Origin: Bacteroidales bacterium
GTDB taxonomy: Bacteria; Bacteroidota; Bacteroidia; Bacteroidales; F082
Assembly (NCBI GenBank): GCA_045606865.1
Contig: JAZUST010000145.1
Coordinates: forward strand, 9,359-73,358
DNA length: 64,000 nt
Reading direction: 5' to 3'
Shown here: positions 30,479 to 42,397 of the stretch, one piece after another
Numbering within the stretch: the stretch's first letter is position 1
Layout: every line of letters starts with the position of its first letter
Notes under the pieces: generated by a model
The model's database searches: none
What the model was told of the DNA's origin: nothing
What the model saw: only the letters and a program-made list of their open reading frames with translations
Translations under genes and position numbers: made by a program

Positions 30479-30799
30479 TCAATTTACAATAAATTTCTTC
30501 ATACCCTCTTTAACTTCATAAGGTATATCACCATAAAATTCTACATTTAAAGGTTTGGTTAAATCTAAACTATATAACCCCATTATTGACTTGGCATTTA
30601 CAACAAAACGCTCAGACTTAACCACAACATCTTCTTTACATTTTGAAGCCAAATTTACGAATTCAGCAATATCCGTAACTCTATTAAAGTATATAGTTGC
30701 TTTAATCGTATCTAAAATAGGCTCTAAATCCTGACATTTATGACAAACCATGCTCCCTTCAGGAATGGGTCTATCACACATCACACATCTTTCTTCCAT
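30479..30799 (-). CDS. zinc-ribbon + HPr-like domain protein
   Basis: ATG 30799 after AAGGGTGA. CVMC...CHKC, then ...FVVNAKSIMGLYSLDLTKPLNVEFYGD... (HPr-fold signature without the phospho-His context). Its TGA stop is in frame with the next gene. Confidence 0.7.
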   Translation of the reverse strand: MEERCVMCDRPIPEGSMVCHKCQDLEPILDTIKATIYFNRVTDIAEFVNLASKCKEDVVVKSERFVVNAKSIMGLYSLDLTKPLNVEFYGDIPYEVKEGMKKFIVN

Positions 30800-30807
30800 A
30801 ATTTTTA

Positions 30808-31026
30808 TCACCCTTTTTCTACATAACACCATTCTTTTGATTTGATACCGTGATATTTCATAGCACAATCGCTAGAACAGAATTTGTTATCATCGTTATC
30901 TATGTAGTATTCATTATCTTCCCTTAAATCTTCCCCACATTGCTCACAGTAACCACGCACCTTTGGATTTGGCGCGTTAGGACAACGAGGGTGATGTCCT
31001 CCAATCCAATGGCAATATTCACACAT
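30808..31026 (-). CDS. Cys-rich small protein (zinc-finger-like)
   Basis: 72 aa. CEYC...HHPRC...CEQCG...FCSSDC. Start overlaps the previous stop (TAATG). Ends TGA TAA. Confidence 0.65.
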   Translation of the reverse strand: MCEYCHWIGGHHPRCPNAPNPKVRGYCEQCGEDLREDNEYYIDNDDNKFCSSDCAMKYHGIKSKEWCYVEKG

Positions 31027-31253
31027 TACAAATTCTCCTTTGAAAAATTCATACTATTTTCATAAGAATATTCTTTAAAGTACTTCTGTTCTGCCTTTTT
31101 TCTAATAGCAATGGCATCTTCTTTATTTTGAAACCTACCGAGGTTTATTGTTTTGTTATCTATGCCAATCCTAGCACTCCACATTCCCATATATGTGTCG
31201 TAAGATACTCCTATATTACCAGATGTGTTATTGCTTGGTATTTTTTTATTCAT
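31026..31253 (-). CDS. AP2-type DNA-binding domain protein (homing-endonuclease-associated module)
   Basis: ...NTSGNIGVSYDTYMGMWSARIGIDNKTINLGRFQNKEDAIAIRKKAEQKYF... is a typical phage AP2 domain. 75 aa. Confidence 0.7.
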   Translation of the reverse strand: MNKKIPSNNTSGNIGVSYDTYMGMWSARIGIDNKTINLGRFQNKEDAIAIRKKAEQKYFKEYSYENSMNFSKENL

Positions 31254-31279
31254 ACCATTTTGTGAACGCGAACAAACCC

Positions 31280-31828
31280 TCAGATTTGCCTTTTACCATC
31301 CATACACCAACAATAATCTTTGATTTTATCATAGTCCTCCAAGTCAAAATAAAATTCCTCGCCACGAAACGTATAACCTATTCCGTAATCGCCAGATAAA
31401 TCATATTTGTTGTATTTGTTTTTGAAACTCCCGGAATTATTATTTTCTTTTCTTAAACATCCACAAGATTTGGTTGCTCCCTTGGTTAAATTAGAGCTTC
31501 TAACCACAACTTGCTTTCCGCAATCGCATTTACAGAGCCACATACAACACCTGTCTGTTTTATCTTTATTATCATCTACTCTCTCAAGAACGCTAAGTTT
31601 GCCGAATTTTCTTCCTGTCAAGTCAATATATTTTTCTCTCTTAGCACATCCGCAAGATTTTGTTCTTCCTGATGTCAAAGATGTTCCTACAACAGAGACA
31701 ACATTTCCACACTCACATTGACAAAGCCAATAATGATGTTTGTCCGTAGAATTGTTTGGTTTCTGTCCTCTCCCAATTACAGTTAGTTTCCCGAAGGAAT
31801 TTCCAGTTAAATCAATACTCTTCCCCAT
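31280..31828 (-). CDS. repeat protein typical of N-termini of AP2/HNH homing endonucleases (no nuclease motif seen)
   Basis: ATG 31828 after GGAGAGG. Two copies of IDLTG..FGKL.V..R........W.C.C.CG..V.V....L..G.TKSCGC. Ends in TGA. Confidence 0.7.
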   Translation of the reverse strand: MGKSIDLTGNSFGKLTVIGRGQKPNNSTDKHHYWLCQCECGNVVSVVGTSLTSGRTKSCGCAKREKYIDLTGRKFGKLSVLERVDDNKDKTDRCCMWLCKCDCGKQVVVRSSNLTKGATKSCGCLRKENNNSGSFKNKYNKYDLSGDYGIGYTFRGEEFYFDLEDYDKIKDYCWCMDGKRQI

Positions 31829-32123
31829 TATTACCTCTCCATTCAAACCCTTTACAATCATTATCAAAACATTCATTACAAGGTGTGTTTTCTAAGAGTG
31901 GACAAGTGCCAAAATCGAAATCTTTACAAGTCCATTCCCAATTGGGAAAGTGTTGACCGTCTTGACCATATCCTCCTTTACCCTGACAATATTTTTCGCA
32001 ATCTCTACCTTTGCATTCGATATTATTTTTACAGTAATGACAAATATTATCAGATTTTATAACAAGTTCCATAAAGTCAAAATAGAGCCGACTCTGCATA
32101 TTTAAAAAATCTTTATAGTTCAT
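31812..32123 (-). CDS. Cys-rich hypothetical protein
   Basis: ATG 32123 after GGGAGAAAG. 103 aa with many Cys residues (CHYCKNNIECKGRDCEKYCQG...). Its TGA overlaps the next start. Confidence 0.6.
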   Translation of the reverse strand: MNYKDFLNMQSRLYFDFMELVIKSDNICHYCKNNIECKGRDCEKYCQGKGGYGQDGQHFPNWEWTCKDFDFGTCPLLENTPCNECFDNDCKGFEWRGNNGEEY

Positions 32124-32306: not shown

Positions 32307-32591
32307 TTATTGAGTTTTTTCTACTTCGAAACACTCTGTATTACAATCGCCCTCGCTACGTTCCAGATACTCTTCAAATTTAACCCTTAAACAACCCTTA
32401 GAACATATATCAAACCCTTCGTAGCTTTCACAGCTGTCATTGCCTCAATCGTGATGATGTGTTGAAAGTTCCCAATAGCTATCCCTGTTTTTGATTTCTT
32501 TTCCGCATACATCACAAAGACGAGTTTCTTTTACTAAAACTTTTTCTGTGACTGTATGTGTTTTGGTTTCAAATTCTTGCTTTAAACTCAT
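32307..32591 (-). CDS. small zinc-finger protein interrupted by one in-frame TGA (32445-32447)
   Basis: GAAAGGAG SD + ATG 32591. 48 codons (...CDVCGKEI...THHHD), TGA, then 45 more open codons with no start codon (GNDSCESYEGFDICSKGCL...). TAA at 32307. Confidence 0.6.
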
Positions 32592-32698
32592 ATTTACTCC
32601 TTTCTCACCCACTTTAAAAGCGTGGTTTTATTGGCATTTTTAGTCTATATATAGTGCTAAAATTGTTATTTAACACTATATATAGTATGCGAAATTTA

Positions 32699-35242: not shown

Positions 35243-35336
35243 TGGTGGGATAGATCAGAGTCGAACTGATAACCAAGGGTATTCAACAGCAATATCCCTT
35301 CACGCTGTAAAGCTCTGCCGATTGAGCTACTATCCC
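35243..35336 (-). tRNA. 94-nt tRNA-like gene with canonical acceptor, D and T arms but a non-canonical 41-nt anticodon/variable region; identity undetermined
   Basis: GGGATAG-TA-GCTC-AATCGGCA-GAGC-[41 nt]-ATCAG-TTCGACT-CTGAT-CTATCCC-A-CCA. The 41 nt fold either as ACAGC/GCTGT with a 13-nt loop plus a long variable arm, or as a 9-bp hairpin. Confidence 0.6.
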
Positions 35337-39548: not shown

Positions 39549-40364
39549 TCATTGATATTTTTGATAGTTATATTCAAAACAGTTCATGTTAAAGTCAGGC
39601 TTGTCTATCTTTTCAAATTTACCATTACTGATTCTACGTTCAAATATCAAATCACAATCTTTAGGATTCTTTAATCCTTGATATTCAGAATACTCATTAA
39701 GCATTTTCTTAGCATCTTTATTTAGCGGATAGACATACCTAAACATAAAACCATTAATCTTATCAATGCCTTTATGTACACAAAAATCATGTGTGAGCCA
39801 AAATCTTTTTTCAACGCCATCATATTGTGCATTTTCTTGGAGTAAAACCTTTGCACTTCTTGGATGTATCTTCTCGCCAGTCTTAAGATTCATATACACA
39901 CTTGTCTTGAATTTACCTATGTAACGAAAATTGCTTGCCTGATAAACATATCCGGCTTTACCCATAATACCGTCAGCTAATGTATACAGTCACTTACAAT
40001 CTGTGTTTTGTTTCATCCACCTAACAAGTAGTGAAACAACCTCGCTGCCAAAAGATTTTGTACTATTCATATCCGGCAGGAAACACATCTTCCCTATTTC
40101 TAAATAATCAGTAGTAACGACATCGTGTTTATAGAATAATTTCTTTATCGTCTGTAAAGGCTGTGTTCCCCAACCCAAAGTTACTACTCCGAGAAGTTGT
40201 TCTTCTTTGAAAACACCTAAATAGCGTTTGGTTATACGAGGTAAGATTTTGGAGTAGTGATATTTTTGAACAAACTCTATTGCTATTTGCTTATCAATTT
40301 CCTTTATATCGTACTTATAAATTGTTCTTCACAGGAGAAACTCATGAGTTTTATGTGCGCACAA
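39549..40364 (-). CDS. Mom-like / GNAT-fold DNA-modification family protein containing two in-frame TGA codons (40329-40331, 39990-39992)
   Basis: TTG 40364, 7 nt after GAAAGGAG. One continuous frame: ...IAIEFVQKYHYSKILP...GVVTLGWG...EIGKMCFLPDM...LLVRWMKQNTDCK-TGA-LYTLADGIMGKAGYVYQASNFRYIG...FRYVYPL.... Confidence 0.7.
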
Positions 40365-42145: not shown

Positions 42146-42397
42146 TCATCTTTCTCCTTTTGGTGGTTCAGGCAGAGGCATCCAGTGAGTCACAGAATCA
42201 ATGCTGCCGGGTATTCTCCAACAAGGCTCCTCTCTCCAATCCCAAAGTTCATAATATCCTTCCTTAACGAGTATATTTCCACTCTTTTGCTTACAAGCAC
42301 AAAGAACTCTAACCGATTTTTTAACCTTGTGGTCTCCCTTCCTTTTCTCTGTTTCAATCTCAGGAAGCTTATCTTTTACATCAATCCATTTATTCAT
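42146..42397 (-). CDS. DUF551-domain protein
   Basis: MNKWIDVKDKLPE...VTHWMPLPEPPK is the characteristic DUF551 start and end. Confidence 0.8.
   Translation of the reverse strand: MNKWIDVKDKLPEIETEKRKGDHKVKKSVRVLCACKQKSGNILVKEGYYELWDWREEPCWRIPGSIDSVTHWMPLPEPPKGER

Follow-up and report, generated by a model that had tools for sequence, protein, structure and literature searches.

The window, by which we mean the whole stretch of 64,000 nt that was analysed (C145:9359-73358, where C145 is contig JAZUST010000145.1), carries on its minus strand a small gene for a zinc-finger-like protein that is interrupted by an in-frame TGA. The Shine-Dalgarno (SD) sequence GAAAGGAG at 32597-32604 is followed, after a 5-nt spacer, by ATG at 32591-32589. 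The reading frame then contains 48 sense codons, TGA at 32447-32445, a further 45 sense codons, and TAA at 32309-32307. An earlier, sequence-only reading of this DNA had given the same coordinates, SD and codon counts, all of which proved exact when re-read on the minus strand. It had also described the second half as lacking an internal start, and indeed none of the 45 codons downstream of the TGA is an in-frame ATG, GTG or TTG, so that the downstream half cannot be expressed independently. Taken alone, an open stretch of 45 codons is not rare, since the stop-triplet frequencies of DNA with 34% GC give it a chance probability of about 7%. The features considered below are the following.

32307..32591, minus strand: the whole interrupted gene (94 codons and the stop), of a phage family of small Cys4 zinc-finger-like proteins with the HxDWGND motif

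32597..32604, minus strand: Shine-Dalgarno sequence, 5 nt before the ATG; the same SD and spacer occur in the relative L002

32448..32591, minus strand: N-terminal 48 codons with C26-x-x-C29 and with H46 and D48 of HxDWGND; the product if UGA terminates

32445..32447, minus strand: in-frame TGA at the codon of the invariant Trp49, next base G; TGG in all relatives

32307..32444, minus strand: C-terminal 45 codons and TAA, with G50, N51, D61, C63-x3-C67 and the predicted helix 65-78

39990..39992, minus strand: the companion case, an in-frame TGA in a Mom-like gene (39549-40364); TGG in its closest relative

The gene lies in a region of DNA modification and nucleotide metabolism, which includes an N6/N4 methylase, a C5 methylase directly upstream of the gene, and HPr-like, ThyX-like, and dNMP-kinase genes downstream of it. 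The C5 methylase and the zinc-finger gene are separated by 107 nt, in which there is a 17-nt inverted repeat, CTATATATAGTGCTAAA / TTTAACACTATATATAG, with a 7-nt spacer (window 32645-32685), overlapped by a weak promoter-like site (32702-32675, minus strand). This repeat may be an operator; it is not conserved in the relative L002. A second small zinc-finger gene is seen 1.3 kb downstream, as a 72-aa ORF (30808-31026, minus strand) with a near-threshold match to zf-FLZ, the FCS-type zinc finger (22.8 bits versus a cut-off of 23.4).

The contig is 100,474 nt long, has identical first and last 141 nt, encodes a terminase at 1-2.8 kb and a tyrosine recombinase (integrase) at 99.2-100.1 kb, and has no host flanks. 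It is a complete circular phage genome of about 100.3 kb and not a decaying prophage. An SD-like motif precedes 55% of its gene starts, compared with a median of 5% on the other contigs of the bin, and the tmRNA tag of the bin is GENNYALAA, which is of the Bacteroidota type. Given this difference in SD usage and the tag, the phage contig is almost certainly mis-binned. The only other contig of the bin that resembles it is C79 (25.7 kb, SD before 63% of starts), and the two look as if they had been mis-binned into an SD-poor, Bacteroidota-like MAG. The bacterium that really hosts the phage uses SD sequences, which agrees with the occurrence of relatives in Clostridia and Lachnospiraceae. Because the phage is mis-binned, the tRNA and RF2 inventory of the bin is weak evidence on how its codons are read.

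The read-through translation of the gene matched 54 proteins in a collection of 5.8 billion, nearly all of them contiguous, 90-121 aa long and covering both halves. The best match is a contiguous protein of 94 aa that is 96% identical and covers 99% of the read-through translation (E=6e-55). This homology shows that both halves are coding and form one gene, as the sequence-only reading had proposed, and contiguous homologues of about 94 aa proved abundant. When 1.84 billion cluster representatives were searched with a profile, free of length bias, 678 relatives were obtained (clusters at 50% identity), 411 of them at E<=1e-10; the relatives listed are contiguous and about 75-325 aa long, mostly about 90-125. 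All of the best 150 of the 678 span both halves, and among these 150 neither a natural 48-residue form nor a homologue ending at the position of the TGA was found.

Eleven residues are invariant in an alignment of 53 sequences: C26, D27, C29, H46, D48, W49, G50, N51, D61, C63, and C67. The four cysteines among them are those that had been picked out, as two pairs flanking the TGA, as candidate metal ligands; in more distant members of the family the second pair is CxxC instead of CxxxC. The TGA itself occupies the position of W49 in the motif HHDWGNDS, where 52 of 52 homologues in the alignment have Trp, which agrees with the earlier guess that D-W-G would fit there. Every residue of the core T-x-H-x-D-W-G-N-D-S is present in our gene except W49, which has TGA for TGG. 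By its similarity to the 94-aa homologue, the gene is thus judged a family member by descent that carries a disrupted allele.

In an AlphaFold2 model built on the alignment (pLDDT 83, pTM 0.62), the CxxC lies in a beta-hairpin, and C63 and C67 are at the N-terminus of helix 65-78. The modeled arrangement of cysteines is treble-clef-like; the ligands are probably C26 and C29 from the beta-hairpin knuckle together with C63 and C67 from the helix N-terminus, and Cys4 zinc binding by the protein is probable on this model. Searches of Pfam, PHROGs, PDB sequences, PDB folds, and BFVD folds gave nothing significant for the family, and no counterpart of the HxDWGND motif is known. Its members, 678 clusters at 50% identity, occur in gut and rumen phages and are uncharacterised, which makes the family worth characterising.

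The distribution of the TGA was analyzed with a degenerate DNA pattern over T-x-H-x-D-W-G-N-D that allows either TGG or TGA. It matched 55 viral contigs, of which 52 carry clear family members, and all 52 have TGG. A longer pattern with TGA had no match in metagenome contigs or species-representative genomes, and with TGG it matched at least 120 contigs from metagenomes and, among the genomes, 5 contigs that belong to Clostridia and Lachnospiraceae MAGs. Without duplicates, the pattern matches represent 127 distinct family members, across which the neighbouring genes are not conserved. The shortened product is on record from this contig only. No copy of the gene was found among the 271 other genomes of the family to which the bin belongs, and tblastn against 50,697 phage records gave no match. 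With respect to all family members, then, a single base change from TGG to TGA is confined to one lineage, and the viral, metagenome, and genome contigs with TGG provide no relative in which the stop is kept, as it would be for programmed readthrough.

The closest relative, L002 (a Logan contig), has 90% nucleotide identity to the gene, TGG at the position of the TGA, the same C5 methylase upstream, and the same SD. The two copies differ by 10 synonymous and 3 non-synonymous substitutions before the TGA and by 9 synonymous and 2 non-synonymous ones after it, with no indel and no further stop. Thus neither the relaxed constraint nor the extra lesions that would be expected downstream of a nonsense allele are seen. 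These counts indicate that purifying selection acted on the C-terminal half over practically the entire divergence from L002. Since the differences are mostly synonymous on both sides of the TGA, the nonsense change appears to be recent or tolerated, that is, either it arose lately or it does not abolish the function.

We consider that the gene probably represents a private TGG-to-TGA nonsense allele of a phage accessory gene, one that is perhaps leaky. It is neither a change of the genetic code, nor a selenocysteine codon, nor a signal for programmed readthrough that is conserved. In this reading, a G-to-A point mutation private to the lineage would have turned TGG into TGA at Trp49 of an otherwise intact accessory gene. 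Most ribosomes would then stop at the UGA and release a 48-residue fragment that lacks half of the metal site and is presumably inactive. A few would insert Trp at the UGA by means of tRNA-Trp(CCA), and the native residue being Trp, any reading of UGA as Trp would recreate exactly the wild-type protein, at a low level. Of the stops, UGA is the leakiest, and it is mainly tRNA-Trp that misreads it; the allele would therefore be a knock-down rather than a clean knock-out.

The expectation of leakiness comes from the literature. For B. subtilis, Lovett 1991 is cited in PMC6316719 for a readthrough of UGA as Trp of about 6%. The stop most prone to error in E. coli is TGA, which is almost always replaced by Trp; readthrough at hotspot positions amounts to 0.7-6%, and a G after the stop makes termination less efficient (PMC11126739). 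The base that follows the TGA in our gene (+4) is also G. For annotation, the private nonsense allele means that the gene should be called interrupted and should not be taken as evidence for recoding. As an isolated case it has little weight, being a further nonsense allele, TGG to TGA, of a phage gene that is dispensable.

The same contig, however, contains a second interruption of this kind. The Mom-like gene (39549-40364) has an internal TGA at 39990-39992, at an aromatic position. Its closest relative (94% identical protein, 85% nucleotide identity) has TGG there; of the 42 other homologues, 38 carry Phe and 3 carry Tyr, and phage Mu has Trp. Judged by these homologues, what is kept at the position is an aromatic residue and not Trp as such. 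The whole contig was scanned for ORF pairs in the same frame that are split by one stop and have coding potential on either side of it, which yielded 11 candidates in addition to the Mom-like gene. Nine of the junctions have an obvious SD and start codon right after the stop and represent ordinary neighbouring genes; truly interrupted on the contig are only the zinc-finger gene and the Mom-like gene.

Among the junctions set aside, the TGA junctions at 30479-30481 (between the HPr-like and ThyX-like genes) and 42146-42148 (between DUF551 and the next gene), both on the minus strand, are ordinary, with a start 0-3 codons after the stop. A further nine same-frame junctions comprise six TAA or TAG junctions inside the window, and two TAA junctions and one TGA junction outside it. 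All of them are ordinary except one TAA junction beyond the window, at window coordinate 68325, which does not have an obvious SD and start like the others. The HNH/AP2 pair at 31026-31876 does not represent simple readthrough.

Both nonsense interruptions of the phage genome are thus TGG-to-TGA changes. Under neutral mutation spectra, such changes make up 2-10% of the possible nonsense changes on the contig, and the neutral expectation for two of two is 0.0005-0.011, a post hoc value with n=2 that leaves frameshifts out. Instead of plain chance, selection in favour of leaky stops or a process specific for G-to-A could be behind this; we take it only as a hint that tolerance is greater for leaky Trp-UGA alleles, and the two Trp-to-UGA splits make one data point on this issue. 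Deamination driven by methylation of a common motif was considered and rejected, as the CCA of the Trp codon is all that the two mutated sites have in common.

A more far-reaching view is that UGA is kept at the Trp codons of the zinc-finger and Mom-like genes as an expression throttle, readthrough giving a few per cent of wild-type protein. If true, this would be a cheap and reversible throttle in a complete, presumably replicating phage of a Clostridia-like host. The Mom protein of phage Mu is toxic and tightly controlled, which would fit a throttle on a Mom-like gene. This view also draws on the low neutral expectation for TGG-to-TGA in both of the genes, the only two in this complete phage genome, that are split by a nonsense change, on a downstream half that still shows constraint resembling purifying selection, on the +4 G that weakens termination in E. 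coli (PMC11126739), and on the reading of UGA as Trp, up to about 6% in B. subtilis (Lovett 1991, cited in PMC6316719). Against it, the TGA is present in no other family member among more than 175 contigs and the closest Mom relative has TGG, so that neither persistence nor recurrence of the allele is seen; the two-of-two statistic is post hoc, with n=2, and covers stop-split genes only. Nor was a stimulatory RNA structure found: there is no stable structure after the TGA of the zinc-finger gene (z=-0.24) or after that of the Mom-like gene (z about 0). We regard a throttle as unlikely.

It is somewhat less likely still that the TGA is an artefact of sequencing or assembly, with the real phage having TGG and the consensus base being wrong or that of a minor variant. 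The sequence does come from a metagenome assembly, the terminal overlap of 141 nt being typical of an assembler with k=141, and the TGA allele is unique to one record. But substitution errors in short-read consensus sequences are rare, random errors rarely make stops, and here two of them, independent of each other, would have had to fall on Trp codons. The consensus shows no other sign of poor quality, with ORFs of 1118-1150 aa intact.

Reading of the TGA as Trp by reassignment (as in code 4 or in the recoding of late genes) or by a dedicated suppressor tRNA of the phage or the host is very improbable. The bin is probably not the host, and for this reason the case against recoding rests on the usage of TGA as a terminator by the phage itself. 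TGA ends 21 of the 95 long ORFs on the phage contig (22%), and only two genes are interrupted by an in-frame coding TGA, the reverse of what a reassigned codon would show, that is, a TGA unused as a terminator and frequent in frame. The sequence-only reading had treated TGA as a weak stop, and this did not hold, as back-up stops are no more frequent after TGA than after TAA or TAG on the phage contig. Under table 11, ORFs of the window are open up to 1150 aa and the long structural genes are intact; ORF statistics and terminator usage together reject code 4 or any global recoding.

In code-4 bacteria, TGA is read as Trp by a tRNA(UCA) or by a tRNA-Trp with a 4-bp stem (PMC13092985). A search with aragorn found no tRNA(UCA) in the phage or in the bin. 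The tRNA set of the phage consists of an ordinary tRNA-Gln(UUG) and two aberrant tRNA-like elements, one of them 2.7 kb upstream of the zinc-finger gene and the other beside the integrase gene; these, and the mis-binning that probably leaves the host outside the bin, are what speaks for a suppressor. The upstream element (window 35246-35336, minus strand) is 91 nt long, scores 43 bits with the Rfam tRNA model and has an encoded CCA end. Its acceptor, D, and T arms are normal, and a segment of 35 nt stands in place of the 17-nt anticodon arm; the MFE fold is a 9-bp bulged stem with the loop GCUGUUG. This element is missed by ARAGORN with default settings, is absent from L002, and has no exact-arm match in viral contigs. 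The ARAGORN intron models of it give implausible anticodons only, and neither TCA nor CCA occurs in its 35-nt anticodon region.

The second tRNA-like element (C145:100247-100305, equal to L193:12248-12306, outside the window) has 59 nt and scores 46.5 bits. It consists of acceptor, D, and T arms with 4 nt replacing the anticodon arm, and it directly follows the tyrosine recombinase gene; a tRNA remnant related to attP is one possible reading of it, a decoy another. With no TCA or CCA in one and no anticodon arm in the other, both elements were rejected as canonical UGA suppressors.

The bin does contain a short-stemmed 'tRNA-Trp(CCA)' (L190:5880-5949, on contig C133), which was rejected as a degenerate copy, with U73, of the neighbouring tRNA-Gly(CCC) at C133:4441-4513, from which it differs in lacking 3 nt of the anticodon arm and in having one mismatch in the acceptor. 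A 267-aa ORF lies between the two copies, which are separated by 1.4 kb. This looks like an attachment-site duplication from an integrated element. The true tRNA-Trp of the bin is canonical and RF2 is present, in a bin that is probably not from the host of the phage. The proposal that the TGA is meant to be read through was accordingly not borne out: the TGA is private, TGA is a normal terminator in this phage, and neither a suppressor tRNA nor a stimulatory structure was found.

Insertion of selenocysteine, suggested by an in-frame UGA between Cys-rich metal-binding motifs, has a negligible probability and is excluded by the invariant Trp (the homologues have neither Cys nor Sec at this position) and by the lack of a SECIS-like hairpin after the UGA, and aragorn found no tRNA-Sec in the assembly.

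The protein and the allele can each be compared with known systems. The CxxC knuckle and the Cys ligands at the helix N-terminus in the model are like those of treble-clef proteins, whereas, unlike treble-clef and zinc-ribbon proteins, the family has no sequence or fold match to a solved or Pfam zinc finger. Com of phage Mu is a Cys4 translational activator of mom, and our protein is like it in being a small Cys4 protein of a phage that also carries a Mom-like gene. Unlike com, however, the zinc-finger gene is unlinked to mom: the two genes are 7 kb apart here, and the relative L194 has no zinc-finger gene within 10 kb of mom. Given this lack of linkage in relatives, we rejected a Com-like role of the protein with respect to the Mom-like gene.

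Leaky decoding of UGA, as in B. subtilis and E. coli, resembles our case in that UGA is found where Trp is native, with G at +4, and no special cis-element is needed. Leaky decoding is a property of the translation apparatus and not of this gene. Stop-codon recoding exists in phages, and, as in phage and code-4 recoding, the TGA is located at a Trp position; unlike in these systems, TGA terminates 22% of the genes, only two in-frame cases are present, and there is no suppressor tRNA. The A1 extension of the phage Q-beta coat protein is an example of programmed UGA readthrough. In such cases the stop is kept in relatives, and both the short and the long products are functional. As in Q-beta, the UGA would be read as Trp by the normal tRNA-Trp and yield a longer protein; unlike there, the stop is absent from all relatives, and the short product has only one half of the metal site.

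Finally, the allele resembles nonsense pseudogenes, with which it shares a single transition, the restriction to one lineage, and the location in a small non-essential gene of a variable region without conserved neighbours. In contrast to these, it shows no secondary decay: more stops or frameshifts are absent, and synonymous changes dominate downstream. Thus the private nonsense allele in this phage would be either very recent or partly functional.
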